This document shows positions 6,173-57,680 of a stretch of 64,000 bases of DNA, one piece after another. The stretch comes from Escherichia coli (GTDB taxonomy: Bacteria; Pseudomonadota; Gammaproteobacteria; Enterobacterales; Enterobacteriaceae). Location: assembly GCF_001677475.2 (NCBI RefSeq), contig NZ_CP015229.1. One strand, given 5' to 3'. The number at the start of each line of letters is the position of its first letter. Positions within the stretch are counted from its first letter, which is position 1. The notes below the pieces were generated by a model. It was not told the origin of the DNA and did not search any database. It worked only from the letters and a program-made list of their open reading frames with translations. The translations under genes and the position numbers were made by a program.

Positions 6173-8152
6173 TCAGAAGCGATAATCCACTGCCATAAAG
6201 TAACGACGTCCGTCTTCGTTATAGCTGTAGTCATCACGACTGAGATCCTTGTCGCCAAGGTTCAGCACGCCTGCGCGCAGTTTGACGTCTTTAGTTACCT
6301 GCCAGGCCGCGCCGGTATTCCAGATGGTATAACCGCCCGGTGTTTTAGCCGTAGCGCTGTCGGCTCGTTTCTGCCCGGTATAGTGCCCAGAAACATAGAA
6401 TGACCAGTCTTCCAGCGCCAGCGGTTTCCAGTCCAGCGTACCGTTAGCGGTATGGAACGGCAGATCGGATAGCGGTTTGTTTTCGCCGTTGCTGACATCA
6501 CGACCATCGTTGTAGGTGTAGTTGAGTGACAGTTTCCATTCATCGTTGAACGGAATTTTCAGTTCGGTTTCCACGCCCTGAATACGAGCTTTGTTAACGT
6601 TGTAGTAGCTAAATACCGGCACACCGTTCGCTGTAAAACCAACAAAGTTTTGGTAGCCCGGTGCAGCATTGACGTCAGACGTACGGCTGATGCTGATACG
6701 ATCTTTCACATCGTTACGGAAAACGGTAACGCTGGATTCAACCCCTTCCAGCCAGCCTTCTTCACCCATGTAGTAAAGCCCCAGCTCCCAACTTTCGCTG
6801 GTTTCTGGTTTCAGATCCGGGCTACCCACAATCTTACATGCGCCACGGCAGGAATTGCTCGTCCAGTCAGGGCTAAGTTGCAACAGAGAAGGTGCTTTAA
6901 AAGCTGTCGCCCAGCCCCCTTTCACCGTTACGGTGTCGGTGGCGTTATAAACCAGGTAGGCACGCGGACTCCAGTGTTCACCGTAGGTTTCGTGATCGTC
7001 CATACGCACGCCGGTCGTCAGCGCCAGCGGCTCGAAGATCCGCCATTCATCTTCCACAAATAGCGCGTACTGGCTGGCAGACGTTTTGGAGCTGGTTCCC
7101 CCGGTCAGGTTCACCGCATCACTAAGTTTGTCGTGACGCCATTCACCGCCAACCGTGAGAAACTGATTAATCGCCGTCAGCGGCAACGTGTATTTGCCGT
7201 CGACCGTATTGCTTTCGGAAGTTATCGGACTGCTGTTGCCAGGGTTTTTATTCTCGACTTTCTCACCGTAGTATTTCAGTTCGCTGGTGCCGTAATCCCA
7301 ACGCCCATTATGGCTGACGGAGTAGTTCTGGCGTTCCAGGCGGTTTTTGTCCAGCGAGTCGGAATCACGATCCTGACGGTCGAAACCGTATCCGGCAGTA
7401 AAATCGTGATTTTGATTCGGTGTCCAGGCAAATTCGACATTGCCGTCGCGGCTGGAGAATCCTTCAATACGCGGCGTTTCTCCGGTATCGGTTGTCGTTG
7501 AGTTTTGCGGGTCATCCTTTTCACGTTTTGCCAGGCTGCCGTAAGCTTTCATTCCCAGCACACCGTCAATTAATGGTCCGCTGGTAAAGAACTGACCGTT
7601 ATAGGTATCACCGCGATCGCGATGTTCCTGAATGGTGGTATCGACGGTAACGGTACCCGACCATTTCTGACCGATTTTTTTGGTGATGATATTCACTACA
7701 CCGCCGAGCGCATCGGAACCGTACAGCGACGACATCGGGCCACGAACCACTTCAATACGTTCGATGGAATCGACCGGGATCCAGTTCAGATCGAAATCAT
7801 TGTGGCGGAAGACGGCATTGCGGGAGTTAACGCGTTTACCGTCGACAAGAATCAGGGTATAGCTGCTGTCCAGACCACGAATACTAACGCCCTTACGGTT
7901 ATCCCCTTCGTTCGTCAGTTGTACGCCAGGCACTTCTTTGAGGACATCCTTCAGATTCTGTACCGGTTTTCGCTGTAGGTCTTCCTGGGTAATGACGCTG
8001 ATACTGGCGGGAGCATCTTTAAGGTTTTGTTCAACGGAAGATGCAGTGACAACCATCGTTTCGCCATCATCATCGACCGCTAACACAGGCCATGCACAAG
8101 AAATAGCGGACAAACACAGCCCGACCCGTACGAAAGGGTTCAACCTAAACAT
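6173..8152 (-). CDS. cirA: TonB-dependent catecholate siderophore / colicin I receptor
   Basis: 659-aa ORF with signal peptide, TonB box (ETMVVTAS), plug and beta-barrel ending in aromatic F. Confidence 0.95.
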
Positions 8153-8321
8153 TCCATATCTCCATGAGGTAACTACGAAAATAAAATGGGTTATCGCTCA
8201 CATCTTCTTCACGTCCCCTTGCGTACGGCAGCATCGCGGTGGACTTATTTATATGCAGGTGATCATCCCAGAAAGCCGGAACAGCCTCTGATTTGTCAGC
8301 CTTTTTTGATTGCGGCGTAAC

Positions 8322-8350
8322 GATAATGCAAACGATAACAATTATCAATC
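8322..8350 (-). promoter_or_regulatory. Fur box in the cirA promoter
   Basis: Minus-strand reads GATTGATAATTGTTATCGTTTGCATTATC, matching the GATAATGATAATCATTATC consensus about 170 bp upstream of the cirA start. Confidence 0.6.
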
Positions 8351-8443
8351 CAAATGTTAAATTTTATATCCGCATGATTTGTCAGGGAAATGGAATTGAA
8401 AAAGCCCTCTCGGTTGAGAGGGCTTAGCAAGGAAGGGAGAAAC

Positions 8444-9913
8444 TTATTTCTTATCGTTCTGCGGGAACTTCATTTCGCTGTAGCGTACGAAGTGAGTTCC
8501 TTTAATCAGCTTGTAGCCGAACCAAATAATCAGGAACAGCGGGATACCAATATACGTTGCCGCTACGCCGCCCCAGTCAATGGTATCTTTCAGGAATGCT
8601 TCGTAGTTCTGGCCCAAAGTGATAATCAGACACAGAATGAATGCGAAGATCGGCCCCAGTGGGAAGAAACCTGAACGGTACGGCAGATCGTTAATGTCGT
8701 GTCCCTGCAATACGTAACCGCGACGGAAGCGATAGTGGCTAATGGCAATCCCCAGCCAGGCGATAAAACCCGTCATCCCGGAGGTGTTCAGCAGCCACAG
8801 GTATACCGTCTGATTGCCAAACATGGAGGTCAGGAAGCACAGACCGGCAATCACCGTCGTCGCATACAGCGCATTACGCGGCACGCCACCACGCGACAGT
8901 TTAGCGAAAATGCGCGGCGCTTTACCGTCACACGCCAGGGTGTACAGCATACGAGTAGACGCATACATACCGGAGTTACCCGCTGACAGCACCGCCGTCA
9001 GAATAACTGCGTTCATCACCGCCGCCGCAGAGAGCAGACCCGCGTGCTGGAACACCAGGGTGAACGGACTGACGCTGATGTCTTTAACATCGTTACGCAG
9101 CAGGCTCGGATCGGTGTACGGAATAATCAGGCTGATAATCAGGATCGCGAACACATAGAACAACAGGATTCGCCAGAACACCTGACGTACCGCGCGTGGA
9201 ATGTTTTTCGCCGGATCTTCGGACTCGCCTGCAGCAATACCGATCAGCTCGGTTCCCTGGAAAGAGAAGCCGACAATCATAGCTACGCCGATCATCGCCG
9301 CAAAACCACCAGCAAACGGCGCTTCGCCGATTGTCCAGTTGCTCCAGCCCGCAGGCTGCGCGCCTTTGAAGATACCGATAATCATCAGCACGCCAACGAT
9401 GATAAAGACAATAACTGTCGTGACTTTGATCAGTGAGAACCAGTATTCCGCTTCACCAAAGCCACGAACTGAGATGTAGTTCAGCAGGAAGATAACGCCG
9501 AGGAACAGCGCACTCCAGATCCAGCCCGGTGTATCCGGGAACCACCAGCTCATGACCAGCTGAGCTGCAACCAGGTCAACGGCGATAGTCACCGCCCAGT
9601 TGTACCAGTAGTTCCAGCCCAGCGCGAAGCCAAAGCCTTCTTCAACATAGTTCTGACCATAAGTGGCAAACGAACCGGAAACCGGCATATATGCAGCCAG
9701 TTCACCGAGACTGGTCATCAGGAAGTAAACCATCAGGCCAATCAACATATACGAGAGCAATGCCCCGCCCGGACCTGCCTGAGAAATCGTTGCGCCAGAG
9801 GCAACAAAAAGACCTGTACCGATGGAACCGCCAATGGCAATCATCGTCAGGTGACGCGCCTTTAATTCACGGAGTAAGCCCGGCGCTTCTGTGGTTTTAG
9901 TTTCGGAAACCAT
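8444..9913 (-). CDS. lysP: Lysine-specific permease (APC family)
   Basis: 489-aa 12-TM amino-acid permease ORF, MVSETKTTEAPGLLRELKARHLTMIAIGGSIGTGLF. Confidence 0.95.
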   Translation of the reverse strand: MVSETKTTEAPGLLRELKARHLTMIAIGGSIGTGLFVASGATISQAGPGGALLSYMLIGLMVYFLMTSLGELAAYMPVSGSFATYGQNYVEEGFGFALGWNYWYNWAVTIAVDLVAAQLVMSWWFPDTPGWIWSALFLGVIFLLNYISVRGFGEAEYWFSLIKVTTVIVFIIVGVLMIIGIFKGAQPAGWSNWTIGEAPFAGGFAAMIGVAMIVGFSFQGTELIGIAAGESEDPAKNIPRAVRQVFWRILLFYVFAILIISLIIPYTDPSLLRNDVKDISVSPFTLVFQHAGLLSAAAVMNAVILTAVLSAGNSGMYASTRMLYTLACDGKAPRIFAKLSRGGVPRNALYATTVIAGLCFLTSMFGNQTVYLWLLNTSGMTGFIAWLGIAISHYRFRRGYVLQGHDINDLPYRSGFFPLGPIFAFILCLIITLGQNYEAFLKDTIDWGGVAATYIGIPLFLIIWFGYKLIKGTHFVRYSEMKFPQNDKK

Positions 9914-47465: not shown

Positions 47466-47539
47466 TTAATTATAAATCAGTTAGCGAAATATCTTACTTG
47501 CAATCGGTGTGGAAAACGGTAGTATTAGCAGCCACGAGT

Positions 47540-47616
47540 CGGCACGTAGCGCAGCCTGGTAGCGCACCGTCATGGGGTGTCGGGGGTCGGAGGTTCAAAT
47601 CCTCTCGTGCCGACCA
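47540..47616 (+). tRNA. proL: tRNA-Pro (anticodon GGG)
   Basis: CGGCACGTAGCGCAGCCTGGTAGCGCACCGTCATGGGGTGTCGGGGGTCGGAGGTTCAAATCCTCTCGTGCCGACCA; cloverleaf with GGG anticodon; encoded CCA absent. Confidence 0.9.
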
Positions 47617-47618
47617 AA
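47602..47618 (+). repeat. attL core (3' end of tRNA-Pro)
   Basis: CTCTCGTGCCGACCAAA, identical to the copy at 58597-58613. Confidence 0.8.
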
Positions 47619-47652
47619 TCGCCCACCGGAAAGCACCGAATAAGACAGGGAT

Positions 47653-47686
47653 AACCCGCTAATCACTTGATTGGCGGGTTTTTTTA
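47653..47686 (+). terminator. Rho-independent terminator downstream of proL (island-borne)
   Basis: AACCCGCTAATCACTTGATTGGCGGGTTTTTTT: stem-loop plus T7 run. Confidence 0.6.
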
Positions 47687-47740
47687 TGGTTTTTAGTCAC
47701 CGAACATCACCGGATTTATAAGCTATCAGCCGGATTTTTT

Positions 47741-47790
47741 AGTTATACGTTTAGTTATACGGGCTGGCGTATAACTAAAGCCGTATAACT
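47741..47790. repeat. Candidate integrase arm-type sites: 2 x AGTTATACG followed by 2 x CGTATAACT (inverted)
   Basis: TAGTTATACGTTTAGTTATACGGGCTGGCGTATAACTAAAGCCGTATAACT just upstream of int; related GCTA(C/T)ACG pair near attR at 58515-58535. Confidence 0.5.
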
Positions 47791-47824
47791 AAAACCCTGT
47801 TTTTTCGTGTGGAATCATAGACAT

Positions 47825-49066
47825 ATGGCGAGAAAAACACCCCCATTAACCACAGTGCAGATCAAAGCAGCCAGACCAGCGCAAAAGGAGTACACCCTAC
47901 AGGACGGCGGTGGGCTTTTTCTCCTGGTAAAACCGTCCGGATCAAAACTCTGGCGATTTTCCTACTACCGACCATCGGACAAAAAAAGAATATTGCTGAG
48001 TTTTGGATCGCTTGAAGATGTTTCCCTGGCTGATGCCAGAAAACGCCGTAGCGAGTACAGGACGTTAATCAGTGCCGGAACTGACCCGCAGGACCATGAG
48101 AAGAAAAAACGAGAGGCAGAGGCCCGAAGACAAGGGAACACGTTCGAAAATGTGGCGGCGGCATGGTACCAGGTGAAAATCAGCCAGAATCTGGCCCCCA
48201 ACACGATTAAAGACATCTGGCGTTCGCTGGATAAATATGTATTCCCGTTCATCGGCAACACGCCAATAGATACCCTCACCGCTCGCCGCTTTGTTGAGAT
48301 ACTCACACCCATTAAAGCACGCGGCAACCTGGAAACTCTGAAACGCGTTTTACAACGCATCAATGAAGTGATGGATTTTGCTGCCAACAGTGGGCTGATT
48401 GACATCAACACCGCCGCGAACGTCCGCAAGGCATTCCCTTCCCCCACTAAAAAGCATATGCCAACCATCCGACCGGAACAGCTACCGCAGCTAATGCACG
48501 ATTTATCGGTCGCCAGCATAGAACGGCAAACCAGATTGCTAATCGAGTGGCAACTGCTGACCGTAGCACGCCCAGCCGAAGCAGCCGCCGCACGCTGGGA
48601 AGAAATAGATCTCGATGCCGAAACATGGACGATTCCAGCCGGACGCATGAAGATGCGCCGTGACCATGTGATCCCTCTTTGCGGTCAGGCGATAGCTGTA
48701 CTGGAAACAATGAAGCCAATCAGCGCACACAGGGAACATGTTTTTCCCAGCCTTAAAAATCCAATGCTGCCAATGAGCAGCCAGACCGCTAACGCTGCAT
48801 TGCGCCGGATGGGATACGCTGGTGTGCTGGTGTCTCACGGATTACGCGCCATATTCAGTACAGCAGCGAACGAGGAAGGATTCGAGCCGGACGTAATCGA
48901 GGCCGCACTCGCACACGTGGACACGAACGAGGTAAGGCGAGCATATAACCGAAGTAACTACCTGGAAAAGCGCGTGGTGCTTATGCGCTGGTGGGGGGAA
49001 TTTGTAGAGGCCGCAGCTACCGGAGTGACCATAGCCAGTGGTAAAAGGGGTATCCGTGCCGTGTAA
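47825..49066 (+). CDS. int: Tyrosine recombinase / integrase, P4-like (N-terminal DUF4102-type arm-binding domain)
   Basis: MARKTPPLTTVQIKAARPAQKEYTLQDGGGLFLLVKPSGSKLWRFSYY... with C-terminal catalytic region (HGLRA...RAYNRSNY); adjacent to tRNA. The GTG at 47807 is an alternative start. Confidence 0.85.
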   Translation: MARKTPPLTTVQIKAARPAQKEYTLQDGGGLFLLVKPSGSKLWRFSYYRPSDKKRILLSFGSLEDVSLADARKRRSEYRTLISAGTDPQDHEKKKREAEARRQGNTFENVAAAWYQVKISQNLAPNTIKDIWRSLDKYVFPFIGNTPIDTLTARRFVEILTPIKARGNLETLKRVLQRINEVMDFAANSGLIDINTAANVRKAFPSPTKKHMPTIRPEQLPQLMHDLSVASIERQTRLLIEWQLLTVARPAEAAAARWEEIDLDAETWTIPAGRMKMRRDHVIPLCGQAIAVLETMKPISAHREHVFPSLKNPMLPMSSQTANAALRRMGYAGVLVSHGLRAIFSTAANEEGFEPDVIEAALAHVDTNEVRRAYNRSNYLEKRVVLMRWWGEFVEAAATGVTIASGKRGIRAV

Positions 49067-49164
49067 CTGTACAAAAAACCAGTAAAAGCGATGCAAACCA
49101 TGCCAAACCATCGTATAATTGCCACAAATTTAACGACAAGGCCGGAGTATATGAAAATTCTATT

Positions 49165-49395
49165 ATGCAAAATACCACCGCCTACGGCGAAGGGCTGCAA
49201 CTGGCGTTAATGGCAAATCGTGAATTCTGGTCAACATACGATCCGGAAGACAAATCAACAGCCCCCACAAAACACGAGGTAGTCAGTTTTTTGCGCTCGC
49301 GTGGTGCATCGAAAAATCTGGCTGAAAGCATCGACAAGGTGCTGAGGCCCACCAGCCTTAAATGCGGTGGGCGACCTAAGAAGTGGAAACGGTAA
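49165..49395 (+). CDS. Hypothetical small protein (76 aa) followed by a terminator-like hairpin
   Basis: ORF with basic C-terminus (GGRPKKWKR); hairpin ATAGCGGCCCTTTGCGGTCGCTATTTTTTT at 49401-49430. Confidence 0.35.
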   Translation: MQNTTAYGEGLQLALMANREFWSTYDPEDKSTAPTKHEVVSFLRSRGASKNLAESIDKVLRPTSLKCGGRPKKWKR

Positions 49396-49565
49396 TCACA
49401 ATAGCGGCCCTTTGCGGTCGCTATTTTTTTGCAGAAAGAAAAGCGTAATCAATGAGATAAAAAACAGTGGGTACCGTTTTAAAACGGTGGGTACTGTTTT
49501 TCCCGCCCTGCCCTGTTTTACCGTATTTATCACCGGAATACGCCGGATTAACGAGGTAAAACATA

Positions 49566-49772
49566 GTGGAAACAATCAGAAAAATACTTACCCGTCAGGA
49601 AGTAAAAAATATTCTGCGCATCAAGGCAGACAGTTCGCTACAGGACATGATCAACGCCGGAAAATTCCCGAAAGGCTTCAAAATCGGTCTGCGTCGTGTT
49701 GGCTGGTATGAAGATGAAGTGCTGGCCTGGCTGAAAGAGCGCGAGGAAGAAGCGCGCGGAACGGCTGCGTAA
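49566..49772 (+). CDS. alpA: AlpA-family (HTH_17) transcriptional regulator / excisionase-like protein
   Basis: GTG start with GAGG SD; 68 aa, LTRQEVKNILRIKADSSLQDMINAGKFPKGFKIGLRRVGWYEDEVLAWL matches the AlpA/prophage CP4-57 regulator pattern. Confidence 0.8.
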   Translation: METIRKILTRQEVKNILRIKADSSLQDMINAGKFPKGFKIGLRRVGWYEDEVLAWLKEREEEARGTAA

Positions 49773-50054
49773 TGGTGTGAGGCGTAACGCGATGAACATA
49801 ACAAAAAGCGCCCCGTTGCCGGAGCGCCCTTGCGAACAATTAACCTACTGCGCAAAAAATGAATCAGTGCAGTGGGATTATATCAACCGTGTAGCGAAGC
49901 GCCACAATTGCCGGATAACAGGCAAAACAAAGGCCACCCGCTACGGTGGCCCTTCGACACAAGCTACACGTTATCCCCAACGCATAAGCGCTGATTACTA
50001 TGCCGTGATTACATCCGGTTGGCAATGTGATCAGTGCGCTGGCTTGCTGGTGGG

Positions 50055-50234
50055 CTATTCCTGCTCTTTGGCCTTGCGTCGCTGGCGGCGTTTGATCTCG
50101 CCTTGCATTGACGCAATGATGAATTGTGATGTGCTTTCGCCTGATTCTTTCACTGATTCCATGGCGTTTACTATTTCGTGTGGTACACGAGCCTTTAGAG
50201 CTTGTGATTTTGCGTTTGTTGTACCCGTTGCCAT
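50055..50234 (-). CDS. Ribbon-helix-helix (Arc/CopG-like) DNA-binding protein; candidate island repressor
   Basis: 59 aa MATGTTNAKSQALKARVPHEIVNAMESVKESGESTSQFIIASMQGEIKRRQRRKAKEQE; GAGGA SD 6 nt upstream; terminator-like hairpin GGCCACCCGCTACGGTGGCC at 49932-49952 with T-rich tail on the minus strand. Confidence 0.6.
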   Translation of the reverse strand: MATGTTNAKSQALKARVPHEIVNAMESVKESGESTSQFIIASMQGEIKRRQRRKAKEQE

Positions 50235-50298
50235 TTCTATTCCTCTGTTGGATTGGTGGGGGACAGTATACACAGAAAAAGCACAAATAAAACTCTTA

Positions 50299-50335
50299 AT
50301 GTGGACCACACCTAGAGCATATAGTGGGCCACACC
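50299..50335. promoter_or_regulatory. Two palindromic operator-like sites (TGTGGACCACACCT and GTGGGCCACACCT) in the divergent promoter region
   Basis: GTGG-N-CCAC palindromes 24 bp apart between the RHH gene and the rightward small-gene operon. Confidence 0.45.
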
Positions 50336-50433
50336 TTGAGGTTATCAAGGTGCATAAATGCAAAGCCCCGCAAGTGTCGTTACCACTCGCAGGGCTTCTA
50401 ACCACCAACGATAGCAGAAGTATCGAGGTAGCT

Positions 50434-50640
50434 ATGTTAAATCATACCACACACCCGCAAGGGCGGGACTCGCACAACCTGAATAAATACATCTGGCGTT
50501 TTATCGCTCTGAGCACGGCACAACCGCGCGTGATTACCATTGAGGCCACCAGCGAACAGGAAGCACGTCAGCAATCTCCTGATGGCTGCGTGATGGTATT
50601 CGCCGCCCGTATTCGTCAGGAGGTGCGCCATGTGCAATAA
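50434..50640 (+). CDS. Hypothetical protein (69 aa), first gene of the rightward operon
   Basis: ATG with GAGGT SD; stop overlaps the next start (ATG at 50630). Confidence 0.4.
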   Translation: MLNHTTHPQGRDSHNLNKYIWRFIALSTAQPRVITIEATSEQEARQQSPDGCVMVFAARIRQEVRHVQ

Positions 50641-50866
50641 CACCCGTCCGGACGCAGCCGCCGAGGCTATCAGAACGCTGATGGACGCGCTGATTGATAT
50701 TTCTGTTATCGCAGACAAGGCGCATAAGCACGCCACCAGCGAAACAGAATATGCCGGGGCTTTCGTTCCTCACTCACTGGCTGTTATGCAATTTAGTGCT
50801 GATATGGCGCTGAATGAGGCCAGCAAAATTATCATGGCTGATATGGAGGTGGTGAGCCATGAATAA
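50630..50866 (+). CDS. Hypothetical protein (78 aa)
   Basis: Strong AGGAGG SD 5 nt upstream; translational coupling on both sides. Confidence 0.5.
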   Translation: MCNNTRPDAAAEAIRTLMDALIDISVIADKAHKHATSETEYAGAFVPHSLAVMQFSADMALNEASKIIMADMEVVSHE

Positions 50867-51107
50867 TCATGATTATGCGGGGGCGATTATGCGAAATAAA
50901 CGTGATATTGAAGACCTGGCATTTGAAGCCCTGCACTCTGCGAAAAAGATCAGGGAAGTCGTCAATATGTGGATGAACAGCCTTAGCACCGATAAATCCG
51001 ATAGCAGAGAGGAAATTCTTATTTCTTTGTTGTTAGACCTGGCAAATACACAGGTTTCTCTGACATCTGATATTGAACTCGCCGCTAAAAAGCTGCCTCT
51101 GGAGTAA
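50859..51107 (+). CDS. Hypothetical protein (82 aa)
   Basis: GGAGGTG SD; overlaps the previous stop. Confidence 0.5.
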   Translation: MNNHDYAGAIMRNKRDIEDLAFEALHSAKKIREVVNMWMNSLSTDKSDSREEILISLLLDLANTQVSLTSDIELAAKKLPLE

Positions 51108-51113
51108 AAAAAC

Positions 51114-51413
51114 ATGAAAAAGAAAAATTCTGGCTTTACTGCCAGTGGTCTCCCTCGGCCTGAAATCCGCCCCGGCGATATTTTCCGGGATAACTACGGC
51201 GGCACGGTAACGATTAAAAGTATTGCCGGACGGTGCGTTACTTACCGCCGTGATGGGTACAGCTACGACTGCGTGATGCCTGTTTATCAGTTCCGGCGTG
51301 ATTTTTCACTGATACAGGCCACACCACGCAAACAGCCCACCAGCAACGCAAAGGCACGGGCAAATATTCAGAAAATGAAAAACATGATTAACGCATTCAG
51401 GGGCACAAAATGA
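51114..51413 (+). CDS. Hypothetical protein (99 aa)
   Basis: GGAG SD; stop overlaps the pri start (ATGA). Confidence 0.45.
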   Translation: MKKKNSGFTASGLPRPEIRPGDIFRDNYGGTVTIKSIAGRCVTYRRDGYSYDCVMPVYQFRRDFSLIQATPRKQPTSNAKARANIQKMKNMINAFRGTK

Positions 51414-53215
51414 AACTGGCACCGAACTTAAAAAAACAGCCACACGACAAAATGACCGAAGTCATTATTTTTGCAGGTAGTGATGCCTGGGCGCACGCGA
51501 AACAGTGGCAGGAACAGGACGGGCGACTTGCTGGCGACAACGTGCCACCTGTATGGCTGGGAGACAGCCAGCTTGACGAACTGGCAGACCTGAAAATTAT
51601 CGACGATGGTCGCTATTGTGTCCGGCTGTACAAGGCAGGCCACATCAAGCCGTCAAATATTAATGCCATCGGGCAAAAGCTGGCGGCGGCAGGTGTACGG
51701 GATGCGAGATATTACCCTGAGGGAATGCACAGCCAGAAGCGGGAGGAGTGGCGCGAATATCTGGAGCGTGCGCGCCAGAATCTTTCTGATGGTCTGGTTA
51801 TTCAGCTTCCTGTTAAGAAAAAAACAGAAGACAGCGCCGCACCACTGGCGCTTAACCAGATGGGAGCAAGCCAGCGCGGCGAAGTTCTCCTGGCACGTTA
51901 TGGCGGCGAACTGGCAATTAATGCGGACTCTGACACCGTTCACCACTACAACGGCGTTGTATGGGAGCCGGTACAGGATAAAGAGTTACAGCGGGCTATG
52001 GCACAGATTTTTATTGATGCGGAGATCAGTTATTCGCAGAACGCCATCAAATCGGCGGTCGATACCATGAAGTTAAGTTTGCCCGTAATGGGGAATACCG
52101 CCCGTAACCTGATTGGATTCAGTAACGGTGTTTTTGATACCCGGACAGGCGATTTTCGGGAGCATGACAAAAACGACTGGCTGTTAATTGCCAGTGAATT
52201 ACCGTTCAGCCCGCCAGCAGAGGGGGAAACGCTGGCAACGCATGCGCCGAATTTCTGGAAATGGTTGCGCCGTTCGGTGGCAGAGAATGGCCGTAAAGCG
52301 GATCGCGTACTGGCGGCGTTATTCATGGTGCTGGCGAACCGATACGACTGGCAGTTATTTCTTGAGGTAACGGGGCCGGGTGGAAGCGGTAAAAGCGTAA
52401 TGGCGGAGATTTGCACCATGCTGGCGGGTAAGGCCAACACGGTATCGGCAAGCATGAAGGCGCTGGAAGATGCCAGGGAACGCGCGTTAGTGGTTGGCTT
52501 TTCGCTGATTATCATGCCGGATATGACCCGCTACGCTGGTGATGGTGCAGGTATTAAGGCCATTACAGGCGGTGACAAAGTGGCAATCGACCCGAAACAT
52601 AAAGCTCCCTACTCAACACGCATTCAGGCGGTCGTGCTGGCGGTGAACAATAACGCCATGTCATTCAGTGACCGCAGTGGGGGGATCTCACGTCGTCGGG
52701 TGATATTCAATTTTTCGGAGGTTGTACCGGAGAACGAACGCGACCCCATGCTGGCAGAAAAAATAGAAGGAGAGCTGGCGGTTGTGATTCGCCACCTGCT
52801 TACTCGTTTTTCTGACCAGGACAAAGCTAAACGCCTGCTGTATGAGCAGCAGAAATCAGAAGAAGCTCTGGTGATAAAACGCGAGGGCGATTCGCTGGTG
52901 GACTTCTGCGGCTATCTCATGTCGTCGGTAATGTGTGATGGTCTGTTAGTGGGTAATGCCGAAATTATTCCGTTCAGTCCGCGCAGATATCTTTATCACG
53001 CCTATCTGGCATATATGAGGGCACACGGATTCGGTAAACCTGTAACACTGACGCGCTTCGGTAAAGATATGCCGGGGGCAATGGCGGAATATGGCAGGGA
53101 GTATATGAAACGGAAAACGAAGCACGGTTTGCGTTCAAATGTGACCCTGACAGAGGATTCAGAAGACTGGATGCCATCATGTACATCGGTCACAAATGAC
53201 GATGGAAAAAATTAA
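51410..53215 (+). CDS. Replication protein: primase C-terminal-like / SF3-type helicase P-loop NTPase (satellite Pri-Rep)
   Basis: 601-aa ORF with Walker A TGPGGSGKS and a hydrophobic stretch ending in D (Walker B-like, VVGFSLIIMPD); immediately followed by an iteron-rich origin. Confidence 0.75.
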   Translation: MKLAPNLKKQPHDKMTEVIIFAGSDAWAHAKQWQEQDGRLAGDNVPPVWLGDSQLDELADLKIIDDGRYCVRLYKAGHIKPSNINAIGQKLAAAGVRDARYYPEGMHSQKREEWREYLERARQNLSDGLVIQLPVKKKTEDSAAPLALNQMGASQRGEVLLARYGGELAINADSDTVHHYNGVVWEPVQDKELQRAMAQIFIDAEISYSQNAIKSAVDTMKLSLPVMGNTARNLIGFSNGVFDTRTGDFREHDKNDWLLIASELPFSPPAEGETLATHAPNFWKWLRRSVAENGRKADRVLAALFMVLANRYDWQLFLEVTGPGGSGKSVMAEICTMLAGKANTVSASMKALEDARERALVVGFSLIIMPDMTRYAGDGAGIKAITGGDKVAIDPKHKAPYSTRIQAVVLAVNNNAMSFSDRSGGISRRRVIFNFSEVVPENERDPMLAEKIEGELAVVIRHLLTRFSDQDKAKRLLYEQQKSEEALVIKREGDSLVDFCGYLMSSVMCDGLLVGNAEIIPFSPRRYLYHAYLAYMRAHGFGKPVTLTRFGKDMPGAMAEYGREYMKRKTKHGLRSNVTLTEDSEDWMPSCTSVTNDDGKN

Positions 53216-53227
53216 ACTTATGGAATA

Positions 53228-53459
53228 ACTGTTCACCACTGTTCACCCTGTCATAAATGTCTTTTATATCAGTACATTATAGGGTGAACAGTTATTTGTG
53301 AACTGTTCACCAAACTATTCACTGTTCACCTTTTTGATTATTTATTGAGCTTTAAGGGTGAACAGTGGTGAACAGTTGGTGAATAGTTTTTGTGAAACTG
53401 TTCACCCCTTAACATCATGAATAAAAAGGGAAAATAGCAAAAGGTGAACAGGTGAAGAG
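53228..53459. repeat. Iteron-type replication origin: about 10 copies of ACTGTTCACC / GGTGAACAG in both orientations with AT-rich spacers
   Basis: CACTGTTCACCACTGTTCACC, GGGTGAACAGTT, GTGAACTGTTCACC, TTCACTGTTCACC, GGGTGAACAGTGGTGAACAGTTGGTGAATAG, GAAACTGTTCACC, AAGGTGAACAGGTGAAGAG. Confidence 0.75.
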
Positions 53460-53502
53460 TTAAAATGCAAAAATTTTATTTTATTGCTGTGAGGTAAAGC
53501 CT

Positions 53503-53748
53503 GTGACAACGAAGCACGCAAAAAAACCACAATCACACGCCCTTGATTTGACAGAACACTGGCTGAGGGTGGCGATAAAAATCATCGACCGCAACGCGGG
53601 AGAAGGATACGCGAAAGCGCATCCCGAACTGATAAGCGCATTCATGACCACGGCGGCGGCAAATTTTGCCACACTGACAGAACGGGAGATTGCCGAAGCG
53701 GAACAGGTGACAACCATCAACGTTAAAACCGGAGAGCAGACAGCATGA
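53503..53748 (+). CDS. Hypothetical protein (81 aa)
   Basis: GTG start with GAGGT SD; overlaps the start of the next ORF. Confidence 0.4.
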   Translation: MTTKHAKKPQSHALDLTEHWLRVAIKIIDRNAGEGYAKAHPELISAFMTTAAANFATLTEREIAEAEQVTTINVKTGEQTA

Positions 53749-54044
53749 CAGCACAGATAGCGGCTTGCGGGCGGCTGGTGGCTGACCCGCAGTTAAAGAC
53801 CACCAGCAAAGGGACACAAATGGCGATGGCGAGTATGGCGGTTCCCCTGCCGTGCAGCCAGGCAGATGACGGAACGGCGACGATGTGGTTATCTGTCCTG
53901 GCGTTTGGCAGACAGGCCGACGCACTGGCAAAACACCACAAAGGCGAACTCCTGAGCGTGGCGGGTAACATGCAGGTGAGCCAGTGGACAGGCCAGAACG
54001 GCGCGACCGGGCGGCAAAAAAGGTCAACAGGGCCAGGCCACTGA
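53745..54044 (+). CDS. SSB-like OB-fold single-stranded DNA-binding protein (short form)
   Basis: IAACGRLVADPQLKTT...WLSVLAFGRQADALAKHHKGELLSVAGNMQVSQWTGQNG follows the SSB OB-fold pattern (GxL..DPEL... W..V.xFG ... KG..V.V.G.L....W). Confidence 0.55.
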   Translation: MTAQIAACGRLVADPQLKTTSKGTQMAMASMAVPLPCSQADDGTATMWLSVLAFGRQADALAKHHKGELLSVAGNMQVSQWTGQNGATGRQKRSTGPGH

Positions 54045-54322
54045 CGCACTGAACAGGGCAAAACAACAGTCAGGGAATGATGAACCGTACGGCGATAATA
54101 TACCGTTTTAAATTCTGCAAACAAAAAGATGCCGGAAAAAAATAGATTTTCCGGCATGCTACATAAATCCCGACCAAAGGAAGTAAATACATTAACACGA
54201 ATTATCAGCACTGAAGTTGTCACGGCATATTTTATACAACATTGCACTTGGTTGCATGTATTCGCATAGCAGACATCGGTAATAGAATATATTCACAATT
54301 ATTTGTAATGAATGTAAAGAGG

Positions 54323-55369
54323 ATGAGTATGGTTGATTTATATTCGCCTACACAGCTTGTGCAGGTGGCTAATGCTGAAGATGTGCAAAAAAAATTAAAT
54401 GCGTTGTTTACCAGTTTGTTTTTCACTCGCTCGGTAATGTTTGAATCGAGAGACATTATTCTTGATACGATCGACGATCCAAATATCCCGATCGCGGCGT
54501 TTTGCTCTCCTATGGTGGGCAGTAAAGTTTCACGAGATGAGGGATACGAATCAAAAACAATTCGCCCTGGCTATATGAAACCGAAAAGCAGTATTGATCC
54601 AAATAAGTTAGCTGTGCGCCCTGCTGGTGTATCACCTGAGCAATACAATGCTTTTGGGGCGCGTAATATTAAAGTTAAACAGGCGATTGTAAATCAGGCT
54701 AAAGCTATTCGTGCACGTATTGAATGGCTTGCTGTTCAGGCAATCACAACGGGGAAAAATATCATTGAGGGCGATGGTATTGAACGTTATGAGCTGGACT
54801 GGAATATAAAACCACAAAATATCATCACTCAGTCTGGCGGTACTGAGTGGTCAGGTAAGGATAAAGAAACTTTTGATCCAAATGATGATATTGAGAGCTA
54901 CGCAGAATTTAGTGAGGGCGTCACTAATATCATCATTATGGGTGGTAATGTATGGAAGAAATACCGTTCATTCAGAGCGATAAAAGAGGCTTTGGATACC
55001 CGTCGTGGTTCTAATTCCGAACTGGAAACGGCCCTTAAAGACCTTGGTGATTCGGTGAGTTTTAAAGGGTATATGGGCGATGTTGCGATTGTTGTTTACA
55101 GCGGGCGTTATACCGACGAGGACGGAACAGAAAAACATTTCCTTGATCCTGATTTGATGGTGCTTGGCAATACGGCTCTTCAGGGGATTGTCGCCTATGG
55201 CGGTATTCAGGATCCGGAGCTAATCCGAATGGGGCTGACTAAAGCCGAACTTGCACCGAAAAACTATATTGTGCCTGGTGATCCGGCTATTGAATATGTG
55301 CAGACACATTCAGCACCACAGCCAATACCGGCCCGCATCAATCGTTTTGTTACCGTTCGCATTGGCTAA
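54323..55369 (+). CDS. Major capsid protein, lambda gpE family
   Basis: MSMVDLYSPTQL... with NITQSGGTEWSGKDKETFDPNDDIESYA, DTRRGSNSELETALKDLGDSVSFKG and GDVAIVVYSG, matching lambda E as recalled from memory (start may be the ATG at 54329). Confidence 0.8.
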   Translation: MSMVDLYSPTQLVQVANAEDVQKKLNALFTSLFFTRSVMFESRDIILDTIDDPNIPIAAFCSPMVGSKVSRDEGYESKTIRPGYMKPKSSIDPNKLAVRPAGVSPEQYNAFGARNIKVKQAIVNQAKAIRARIEWLAVQAITTGKNIIEGDGIERYELDWNIKPQNIITQSGGTEWSGKDKETFDPNDDIESYAEFSEGVTNIIIMGGNVWKKYRSFRAIKEALDTRRGSNSELETALKDLGDSVSFKGYMGDVAIVVYSGRYTDEDGTEKHFLDPDLMVLGNTALQGIVAYGGIQDPELIRMGLTKAELAPKNYIVPGDPAIEYVQTHSAPQPIPARINRFVTVRIG

Positions 55370-55378
55370 GGGGGAGCA

Positions 55379-55720
55379 ATGGCTACTCATTACACTGAAC
55401 TCATGTCTGGCACTGAAGCACTGGTTACTACGCTGGGGATATTTTCAGCCAATAAAGGGGTAATACCTGCGTTTACGCCACTGATGCAGGAAGATGCAAC
55501 TGGTGCGCTAGTGGTATGGGATGGAACGAGCGCAGGCAAAGCGGTTTATGTTTCCGCTGTACAAATCGACACAGCGAAAAAAACACAGGCACAGGTTTAT
55601 AAGACAGGTGTTTTAAATGTTGATGCTCTGAACTGGCCTGAGTCTGTAAAAGAACTGTCGGCAAAGGTTGCCGCGTTTGTTGGCTCAGGTATTTCTGTTC
55701 AGCCGCTGGCTCGTGTGTAA
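55379..55720 (+). CDS. Head decoration protein, lambda gpD family
   Basis: 113 aa; TPLMQEDATGALVVWDGTSAGKAV...YKTGVLNVDALNWPE...AAFVGSGISV parallels lambda D as recalled from memory. Confidence 0.75.
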   Translation: MATHYTELMSGTEALVTTLGIFSANKGVIPAFTPLMQEDATGALVVWDGTSAGKAVYVSAVQIDTAKKTQAQVYKTGVLNVDALNWPESVKELSAKVAAFVGSGISVQPLARV

Positions 55721-55731
55721 AGGGGGATACA

Positions 55732-56115
55732 ATGCAGAATCATTACAATGACCTTAAGCCAATTGCCGAAATGATGTATCCGGATCCAGCAGTAGAGGAA
55801 TTAAAGGCTATTGCTGACAAAATGCGTTTAAGTGAACGCCTTGTTGATATGAATCAGGTGATGGAACTTACTACCCTTAGCCGTCGCACATTGCTAAACC
55901 TTGAGGCTCGCGGAGAGTTCCCCGAACGCGTACAGGTTACGGAAGGGCGTAAGGCCTGGTATTTAAGTGAAGTGATCGACTGGATAAACAATATTCCTCG
56001 AGCTTCTGAATATTGCCGCGTACCTGTCCCAAAAAAGCCAGATGCGGCGCTATGCCTCAAGATTGAGCGTGTACGTCGCAATGCACGGGATGGTCGCTAT
56101 AAGTTGATTGGTTGA
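55732..56115 (+). CDS. AlpA/HTH_17-family DNA-binding protein with N-terminal extension
   Basis: LVDMNQVMELTTLSRRTLLNLEARGEFPERVQVTEGRKAWYLSEVIDWINN matches the AlpA-type HTH pattern; lies directly upstream of cos. Confidence 0.55.
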   Translation: MQNHYNDLKPIAEMMYPDPAVEELKAIADKMRLSERLVDMNQVMELTTLSRRTLLNLEARGEFPERVQVTEGRKAWYLSEVIDWINNIPRASEYCRVPVPKKPDAALCLKIERVRRNARDGRYKLIG

Positions 56116-56140
56116 TGAAATTAGGGCCCGTTCTGGCTGG

Positions 56141-56215
56141 CGGGTCCTTTCCGGCGATCCGGTAGGCTACGGGGCGGCGACCTTGCGGATTTTCGCTATT
56201 TATGAGCCTTTTCGG
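56141..56215 (+). other. Lambda-type cos site (cosQ-cosN plus conserved flank)
   Basis: CGGGTCCTTTCCGGCGATCCGGTAGGCTACG|GGGCGGCGACCT|TGCGGATTTTCGCTATTTATGA; the 12-nt GGGCGGCGACCT (56172-56183) equals the lambda cohesive end as recalled from memory. Confidence 0.75.
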
Positions 56216-56316
56216 GTTGGTGGTGGTGGTTTTGTTTTTCGCTCTATCTCTATGAATAAAAAGGGAAAGATAACACCAACACACCAACCTGAAACCTTAA
56301 CTAAGTGGGGATATTG

Positions 56317-56859
56317 ATGAAATCGCACCTGATGAACAAAAAAACTATGGCGCAAAGCTGCCGCGTAAGTGCGACAGCGTTCGACAAGTGGGGAGTAACT
56401 CCCGTTGAGCGTAAAGGCCGTGAGGCGTTTTATGATGTTGCCAGCGTGATAGACAATAGGGTTAACAATGCAATTAACCAGCTTACAAACGACAAAGGCG
56501 AGATTGATGATGATGAACTTTTACGCGTAAGAATCAGATTAATGACGGCCCAGGCGGAAGCGCAGGAACTTAAAAACGAGCGCGAACGCGGCGAGGTGAT
56601 TGATACAAAGTTTTGCATCTACGCGATTTCAAAACTGGCGAGTCAGATTTCATCAATCATGGACAGCCTCCCGCTCACAATGCAAAGGCGCTTTCCCGAT
56701 ATAAGGCCGTATATGCTGGATGAACTAAAAAGGGAAATAGCCAAAGCATGTAACGCATGTGCAAGACTTGACGAAAACCTGCCACAGATACTGGCTGATT
56801 ACCTGATGGAAACTACCGGAAGCGCGCCTGAGAAGTTGCTACAGAACAAAGGCGAGTAA
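56317..56859 (+). CDS. Terminase small subunit, lambda Nu1 family (no large subunit gene follows)
   Basis: RLMTAQAEAQELKNERERGEVIDTKFCIYAISKLASQISSIMDSLPLTMQRRFPD and C-terminal LKREIAKACNACARLDENLPQILADYL match lambda Nu1 as recalled from memory; gene sits about 135 bp downstream of cosN. Confidence 0.75.
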   Translation: MKSHLMNKKTMAQSCRVSATAFDKWGVTPVERKGREAFYDVASVIDNRVNNAINQLTNDKGEIDDDELLRVRIRLMTAQAEAQELKNERERGEVIDTKFCIYAISKLASQISSIMDSLPLTMQRRFPDIRPYMLDELKREIAKACNACARLDENLPQILADYLMETTGSAPEKLLQNKGE

Positions 56860-56932
56860 CCGCCGCCCCGTAACGGGCCATAATTCCAGGAGGGACCCGA
56901 CGACACCAGGCTATCAGAGCGATGGGGGCACA

Positions 56933-57214
56933 ATGACAGAAGCCGAAATACTGCGATTAATCCGCCGCGTTACCGGAATCAGCCAGCAGGCTGACGAACA
57001 GGCCACGCAGCCGGACAGCGTGACCGCTGAAAATTATGTGCGTGTTGTTGCTGAGGTGATGCGCCGTGATGGTATTGAGCTTAACGGCGTGGATATGCGC
57101 AACATACGAACAAGAGTCCTTGAGTTGCTGGCATACCGTCGCCGGATACAGACGTACAGGGAAAAAGCCAAAATAACGTACCAGTGGAAGAAGCCGGAGC
57201 GGTTACGGCGGTAA
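56933..57214 (+). CDS. Hypothetical protein (93 aa)
   Basis: ATG ORF downstream of terS-like gene; Arg-rich C-terminus; no recognised motif. Confidence 0.4.
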   Translation: MTEAEILRLIRRVTGISQQADEQATQPDSVTAENYVRVVAEVMRRDGIELNGVDMRNIRTRVLELLAYRRRIQTYREKAKITYQWKKPERLRR

Positions 57215-57235
57215 CTTGCTGAACTTAAAGCATAA

Positions 57236-57333
57236 TGGAAATTTGCACTCTGGCCTAACCCGTTAATATTTCAGCAAAGTGCAAATTTGCGTTCTGTAGC
57301 TGGTGGCTGGCAGAATGTAAATTTACATTCTGG
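57236..57333. repeat. Three related palindromic sites sharing an AAATTT core and ending in TTCTG or CTCTG
   Basis: GGAAATTTGCACTCTGG (57236), GTGCAAATTTGCGTTCTG (57279), CAGAATGTAAATTTACATTCTGG (57311; 20-bp perfect palindrome). Confidence 0.6.
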
Positions 57334-57337
57334 TGAT

Positions 57338-57637
57338 TTAATCATCTGATTTACCCAGCCCGTACCGGATTACCGTACAGTGAGCGCCATCGCTACCGAT
57401 ACGCACATCAAAGCGGGGTTCGCGCACTTTCACGCGGTACAGGATCCCATCATTTACCATAGCGTTTAACGTTCGTCGGGTTGCCTCTATGTGGTATCGC
57501 TGATATTCGGAACCATAGAGCAGCAATGTAACACCACGAACATCAAATGGTGGTTCTCCAGCCTCCACCCGCACCCAATCGCGATACTCAGGTTTGTAAA
57601 GTTCAAGAATCTGTTTTTTGTGCCTGGTCATTCTCAT
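57338..57637 (-). CDS. Hypothetical protein (99 aa), reverse-oriented accessory gene
   Basis: ATG preceded by AGGA SD 7 nt upstream; MRMTRHKKQILELYKPEYRDWVRVEAG...; no recognisable family. Confidence 0.5.
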   Translation of the reverse strand: MRMTRHKKQILELYKPEYRDWVRVEAGEPPFDVRGVTLLLYGSEYQRYHIEATRRTLNAMVNDGILYRVKVREPRFDVRIGSDGAHCTVIRYGLGKSDD

Positions 57638-57680
57638 GTGTGATTCCTTATTGTGGGACAGTACTGTCATACAATAAGCT

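Follow-up and report, generated by a model that had tools for sequence, protein, structure and literature searches.

A 99-codon ssb open reading frame in an EcCICFT073-type PICI of Escherichia coli is probably a truncated, frameshifted allele of the island SSB gene

Introduction

Does the short SSB-like open reading frame at positions 53745-54044 of the window, a stretch of Escherichia coli DNA 64,000 nucleotides in length, encode a naturally short single-stranded DNA-binding protein (SSB), or is it what is left of a longer one? A preliminary description of this DNA had noted that the ORF follows the sequence pattern of an SSB OB fold and lacks the long Gly/Pro-rich tail and acidic tip of the host SSB, and had proposed that the product might be a satellite-specific ssDNA-binding factor or a decoy for helper or host replication proteins. 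From the analysis reported here we consider it probable that the ORF is a truncated and frameshifted allele of a PICI ssb gene rather than a new kind of protein, and that its product is null or nearly so, because its OB barrel is left unclosed and the tip through which partners are recruited is absent.

Results

Anatomy and profile matches of the ssb open reading frame

The ORF is present exactly as first described, with 99 codons on the + strand running from ATG to TGA. A GGAGAG motif lies 8 nt 5' of the ATG at 53745, and the start overlaps, as ATGA, the stop of a conserved 81-aa ORF (53503-53748, + strand) which matches PHROG 1231, a family of unknown function, and for which the NCBIfam search returned no match. 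This 81-aa ORF always lies directly before ssb in relatives and, judged by the ATGA overlap, the two genes are translationally coupled.

In Pfam the 99-aa product matched the SSB family PF00436 at 51.5 bits (cut-off 26; E = 1.1e-13), and in PHROG its match was to family 44, 'single strand DNA binding protein', at E = 2e-27; these scores place the ORF, as far as profiles can, in the SSB family far beyond chance. The sequence pattern seen in the preliminary description is thus borne out, but the PF00436 alignment covers only positions 3-91 of the 104 in the profile. In NCBIfam the SSB matches were sub-threshold only, TIGR00621 giving 42 bits, under its cut-off of 53.95. Trp54, Phe60 and Trp88 of E. 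coli SSB are aromatic residues that contact ssDNA, and these align with W48, F54 and W82 of the window protein, which are retained. The product therefore has the profile signature (PF00436) and the aromatic residues of an SSB, and has neither a complete OB barrel nor an in-frame linker and D-x-IPF tip.

Read in its own frame, the ORF ends ...RQKRSTGPGH*, with no linker and no acidic or IPF tip. The earlier statement that tail and tip are missing holds for this frame, but not for the DNA as a whole: an out-of-frame remnant of the ancestral 3' end, comprising linker and tip (RPGGKKGQQGQATDALNRAKQQSGNDEPYGDNIPF) and the original TAA stop, is still encoded at 54004-54111 (+ strand), and the last codon of the DEPYGDNIPF tip, at 54106-54108, can be read solely in the +1 frame.

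A 56-bp deletion in an otherwise 140-aa gene

When positions 53400-54300 were compared by megablast with 5,426 complete E. coli genomes, matches were found in 1,720 of them, and every full-length match came in two pieces, with 56-57 extra bases in the subject, and with the gene annotated 'single-stranded DNA-binding protein'. A DNA alignment of the window with two intact E. coli alleles contained a single gap of 56 columns and had a mean column identity of 94% elsewhere. At the equivalent place in close E. coli relatives the intact gene encodes a protein of 140 aa, MTAQIAAYGRLV...QWTGQNGETRQGWQVIADSVISARAARPGGKKGQQGQATDALNRAKQQSGNDEPYGDNIPF, ending ...NDEPYGDNIPF. The 56-bp deletion removes residues 87-104 (ETRQGWQVIADSVISARA) and shifts the downstream frame, and 13 unrelated residues finish the window product; residues 1-86 of the 99 are ancestral OB-fold sequence (beta1-beta4 and the helix), while residues 87-99 (ATGRQKRSTGPGH) are out-of-frame junk.

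Alignment placed the deletion junction at 53992-54003, which is the sole surviving copy of the direct repeat GCCAGAACGGCG. In intact alleles that encode ...SARTARP..., such as that at locus L002, perfect copies of this 12-nt repeat, 56 nt apart, bound the segment that is deleted in the window; in the intact allele at locus L001 the repeat at the deletion ends is CGGCG only. The deletion most plausibly originated by slippage between two short direct repeats, 12 nt long in some alleles, a slipped-strand mechanism that we infer because the deletion anatomy shows bounding direct repeats, the classic substrate for such events.

The 3' half of ssb is rich in short repeats and appears deletion-prone. 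Rare in-frame ssb deletion alleles of 116-123 aa (P0115, P0135 and P0141) were also seen in related E. coli islands, and these have lost beta5 and kept the ...PYGDNIPF tip.

Structure and conservation of the family

The AF2 model of the intact 140-aa protein, computed from an alignment of 76 diverse relatives, has a mean pLDDT of 88, with values of at least 95 over residues 1-100. It contains strands at residues 3-11, 16-19, 25-36, 44-54, 69-82 and 88-100 and a helix at 55-62, followed by a low-confidence tail, and it can be superposed on the OB domains of bacterial SSBs of solved structure (Foldseek E ~1e-9; TM ~0.8, target-normalised); sequence searches of the PDB aligned the intact protein to SSBs through residue 99-112. 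In this model the whole of the last beta strand (88-100) falls inside the deleted residues 87-104. The corresponding AF2 model of the 99-aa product has beta1-beta4 at high pLDDT, with an OB-like sheet over residues 1-82, and a pLDDT over residues 88-99 that falls from 59 to 44. As evidence on stability this second model was set aside and used neither way, the prediction being driven by the alignment.

Among 118 close homologues, with modal lengths of 140-141 aa, the beta5 motif is kept in 114 and the D-x-IPF ending is found in 107. Distant relatives, of which there were 7,201 at E < 1e-3 in a 50%-identity library, conserve both the block RE..Q..ADS..SARTVRPGG, which is the one missing in the window, and a terminal FDDxxPF. 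In the satellite family the SSB normally runs to 136-149 aa, its linker is short and its D-x-IPF tip is conserved. The suggestion that the shortness of the window protein is a satellite-specific design does not hold, since the window copy owes its length to the frameshift caused by the 56-bp deletion and has lost its last strand.

The host island

The ssb gene sits in the replication module of what is, on its gene content, an EcCICFT073-type PICI of ~11 kb at tRNA-Pro(ggg), located between yejM and yejO/narP. The tRNA gene (47540-47616) carries at its 3' end an attL-like repeat (47598-47625) which, together with an attR-like repeat at 58593-58620 containing the 17-nt exact core CTCTCGTGCCGACCAAA, bounds the island. 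An integrase ORF (47807-49066) adjoins the tRNA gene and is followed by an AlpA-type regulator, small ORFs and a DUF4222 protein. In the centre of the island are the replication initiator, a P4-family primase/D5-type helicase of 601 aa (51410-53215, + strand; D5_N, DUF5906 and Pox_D5 matches), an iteron field, the 81-aa ORF and ssb, and in the right part a capsid gene, a decoration protein, a second AlpA-like protein, a Nu1-type small terminase and a PerC-like protein. The iteron field (53224-53452) lies directly 3' of the primase-helicase gene, is AT-rich and holds at least 10 copies of ACTGTTCACC / GGTGAACAGT in both orientations; on this organization it is very probably the island replication origin.

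In the work of Fillol-Salom et al. 2018 (PMC6092414), a PICI is recognized by an AlpA-type regulator and by a primase/rep gene with an iteron origin behind it, the origin is placed just 3' of the initiator gene, and homologues of capsid (c1499) and decoration (c1500) proteins are described in EcCICFT073. In the window we found an integrase at one end and flanking direct repeats, AlpA domains together with the primase-helicase and the iteron field, and a gene order in common with the prototype, including homologues of c1499 and c1500, which Pfam identifies as a lambda-E-type major capsid protein (346 aa) and a lambda-D-type head decoration protein (113 aa) at 54329-55720 (+ strand). The remaining island genes have lengths equal to those in intact relatives. 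The preliminary description placed the ORF in a satellite's replication module, and this is upheld for a phage satellite, the order DUF4222, P4-type primase, ori, small ORF, ssb, capsid and head-decoration genes being that of EcCICFT073 itself.

In other E. coli islands the cassette of small ORF and ssb is also found after RepA/AAA_25 helicases and after DUF927 initiators. The cassette is thereby common to islands with three unrelated initiators, a P4-type primase, a RepA/AAA_25 helicase and DUF927 (L009-L013, at 7998-9911, L014, L017 and L018), and in one PICI backbone a 637-aa ClpP-protease/capsid fusion replaces the E/D-type capsid pair. Read from gene content, these swaps of cassette and capsid show that E. 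coli PICIs undergo modular shuffling. The full-text literature that we searched contained no discussion of the PICI SSB gene, its sole 'single-stranded DNA' match being to salmon-sperm carrier DNA.

Occurrence and origin of the deletion allele

The exact 99-aa protein occurs on about 20-22 public E. coli contigs, where it is named 'single-stranded DNA-binding protein [Escherichia coli]', and its UniRef label is 'Plasmid-derived single-stranded DNA-binding protein'; a sister 99-aa allele (P0003) is present on at least 24 contigs. Both the sequence and its family name are therefore already in public databases, and only the recognition that it is a deletion/frameshift allele is new. Ten loci, of differing strains, integration sites and island backbones, were fetched from 46 contigs (NCBI, ENA and Logan assemblies), and the junction 26-mer CAGGCCAGAACGGCGCGACCGGGCGG was identical in all ten of these deletion loci (L004-L013) and absent from intact loci. 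A 44-nt query that matches only across the junction found it in none of the 5,426 complete E. coli genomes; an earlier 81-nt junction query had given an ambiguous result against the same genomes, as BLAST joined two pieces. The intact sequence of a single strain, Z1323CEC0013, is alone found on 526 contigs. The deletion allele is real and heritable, but rare.

The window-type allele (class A) is marked by a unique Cys8, which supports a single origin within that class, as far as can be read from sequence. It was found at a locus with 99.86% identity to the window across island and flanks (L004), at another chromosomal site with a different integrase module and 99.2% identity over the right-hand 7 kb (L005), and in a more diverged island (L007). 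The P0003 class occupies a different PICI backbone, having a RepA helicase and the ClpP-capsid fusion, at two sites. The two deletion classes differ at 14 of 367 sites, with only one differing site in alignment columns 89-344; the ends of each class resemble intact alleles of its own backbone, and the new C-terminus reads GPGH in one class and GAGY in the other. This pattern would fit one origin followed by recombination and, equally, recurrent slippage at the 12-nt repeat, the two being indistinguishable for classes A and B. A linked CC marker (Val to Leu, ELLSV) was considered as a sign of single origin and rejected, as many intact alleles also have ELLSV.

Discussion

Comparison with known SSB systems

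One point of comparison is the prototype island itself, which has been studied by experiment. The SSB of EcCICFT073 (E. coli CFT073, C_RS06995 / WP_000126698.1, 136 aa) shares 69% identity with the intact 140-aa allele and ends ...DDPYGDDIPF; its gene is intact, whereas the window copy is without 56 bp and so has lost beta5, linker and tip. The chromosomal SSB of E. coli (178 aa) has the OB fold in common with the PICI protein, at 26% identity over ~100 residues and with the aromatics aligned, and ends ...DFDDDIPF, to which the IPF tip of the intact PICI protein is similar. Its Gly/Gln/Pro-rich linker is ~65 residues long, compared with ~35 in the PICI family, and the window allele has no linker, no tip and an incomplete barrel.

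Naturally short SSBs are represented by the SsbB proteins of Bacillus subtilis and Staphylococcus aureus (PDB 3vdy and 5yyu), which are ~105-115 aa long and ranked high in the structural search with the intact model. These proteins have no acidic tip. However, the SsbB barrel is complete and five-stranded, whereas the window protein is short through a cut barrel. A protein of the SsbB type would have a complete OB fold, would lack the tail by design and would come from an ORF whose end is conserved; here the barrel is incomplete and the ends differ by class, and the gene is better classed with defective alleles of the PICI SSB than with natural short SSBs of the SsbB kind. Plasmid-encoded SSBs, of which F-plasmid Ssb is an example, resemble the PICI case in that a mobile element carries its own SSB beside replication or transfer functions. 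Unlike the plasmid SSBs, the PICI SSB family is a distinct short-linker clade on chromosomal islands, and of more than 2,200 matches in E. coli genomes only 2-3 were plasmid-borne.

A truncated allele and the alternatives

On the reading that we favour, the ancestral gene encodes a protein of ~140 aa in which a complete SSB OB fold is followed by a linker of ~35 residues and a ...PYGDNIPF tip resembling the one by which bacterial SSBs bind their partners. Codons 87-104, encoding the last barrel strand, were removed by the 56-bp deletion, most plausibly through direct-repeat slippage, and the frame shift left a 99-aa product with four of the five strands and 13 nonsense residues, and with neither linker nor tip. 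A barrel without its closing strand would be unable to fold or oligomerise normally, and a product without linker and IPF tip would be unable to recruit SSB-interacting proteins; the island would tolerate the loss since host SSB could coat its ssDNA during replication. The demonstrated steps in this scheme are the deletion, its position, the residues removed and the heritability and spread of the allele, and from the sequence we infer a loss of function. As counterpoints to such a loss, the aromatics W48, F54 and W82 are retained, and the allele persists at two chromosomal sites in its Cys8 form and in a second PICI backbone. Since the allele has persisted across sites and backbones, its truncated product does no strong harm, and it might retain some activity or have gained a new one. 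The same persistence, across island variants and integration sites, suggests that ssb is dispensable for island maintenance, and perhaps also for transfer.

We think it unlikely that the 99-aa protein is instead a functional, selected short OB-fold factor, whether as a weak ssDNA binder, as a poison subunit of SSB oligomers or as an advantageous loss-of-function (evading, for example, host sensing of a foreign SSB). The first 86 codons are open and unmutated in two classes that differ at 14/367 sites, the allele is found in two PICI backbones and at least three integration sites, and the counterparts of the aromatics with which E. coli SSB contacts DNA are kept, as this explanation would lead one to expect. 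However, the allele originated by a frameshifting deletion that left an unconserved C-terminus (GPGH or GAGY), the barrel strand that it lost is conserved across thousands of relatives, and it is rare, being present on tens of contigs compared with hundreds to thousands for intact alleles and in 0 of 5,426 complete genomes; moreover, its spread is explicable without selection, by recurrent slippage at the 12-nt repeat or by recombination hitch-hiking. A broader version, in which the deletion allele circulates as a selected variant, either as a tip-bearing, DNA-blind 121-aa slippage decoy or as an advantageous satellite-SSB knock-out that escapes, for example, host or helper sensing of a foreign SSB, would explain its presence in two PICI backbones and several integration sites, and we regard it as very unlikely.

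The earlier suggestion of a decoy for helper or host replication proteins finds no support in the ORF as it stands, because the truncated ORF is without the tip through which SSBs contact their partners. A tip could be regained only by reading into the +1 frame. The A6-GG run at 54016-54023 (+ strand), read CAA-AAA-AGG in the truncated frame (54015-54023), is a speculative +1 slip site at a rare AGG, and low-level ribosomal slippage there would give a 121-aa protein with an IPF tip and no beta5, possibly a decoy for SSB-interacting proteins. The tRNA-Lys in the P site is able to pair again with the overlapping AAA, and the A-site AGG is rare and slowly decoded; a re-pairable P-site codon next to a slow AGG promotes +1 shifts at Ty1 CUU-AGG-C and E. 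coli AGG_AGG (PMC5009743). The +1 frame is open from the slip site to DNIPF*, and the natural in-frame alleles P0115, P0135 and P0141 have a like architecture. Nevertheless, intact alleles already have the A-run, in frame, so that it is ancestral and falls just after the junction by coincidence; there is a single AGG, with no stimulatory Shine-Dalgarno or structure found around it, and the in-frame beta5-less alleles are singletons, all of which makes productive slippage highly improbable. That the deletion arose only in sequencing or assembly, the gene being really intact, has a negligible chance of being true, for although the junction is in 0/5,426 complete RefSeq E. coli genomes, it is identical in ten loci from differing strains, sites, backbones and independent assemblies.

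With a truncated and frameshifted PICI ssb as the preferred reading, the SSB family, the satellite module and the tail-less ORF of the preliminary description stand, and damage takes the place of designed shortness. The attractive notion of a 'designed mini-SSB or decoy' gives way to a routine slippage deletion in an accessory replication gene, which taken alone carries little weight. It does draw attention to a conserved short-linker SSB with an IPF tip that EcCICFT073-type PICIs carry irrespective of whether a P4-type primase, a RepA helicase or DUF927 is the initiator, and to natural, apparently knock-out ssb alleles, the window's included, that persist at several chromosomal sites in islands with no other damage. 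The window allele could serve as a ready-made natural mutant for probing what the PICI SSB contributes.

Other features of the island and its flanks

A terminator-like hairpin with an 11-bp stem followed by a T-run lies at 54129-54157 (- strand), between ssb and the capsid gene, with no minus-strand gene nearby; a promoter/terminator scan around ssb gave counts not above those for shuffled sequence. An exact 17-nt repeat, ATGAATAAAAAGGGAAA, occurs at 53417-53433, 5' of the pair formed by the 81-aa ORF and ssb, and again at 56252-56268, 5' of the small-terminase-like gene, which raises the possibility of a control site common to both. A perfect (GGCT)n tetranucleotide tract of ~13 units (58156-58217) lies just within attR, close to the island's right end, and could be phase-variable or slippage-prone.

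The chromosomal flank at 58500-63900 (yejO, narP, ccmH and dsbE) has at most 97.9% identity to any of the 5,426 complete E. coli genomes, and the host lineage therefore seems to be poorly represented among them. Over 47500-58500, which takes in the island and its near flanks, the draft assembly GCA_016118665.1 is a 99.86% match.

In the left module, a 287-aa ORF with a GTG start (49777-50640) matches a PHROG 'transcriptional repressor' family (Icd-like region) over its last ~80 residues only. Relatives have several short genes in its place, and the ORF is therefore probably over-extended; the module around it is the most variable portion of the island.
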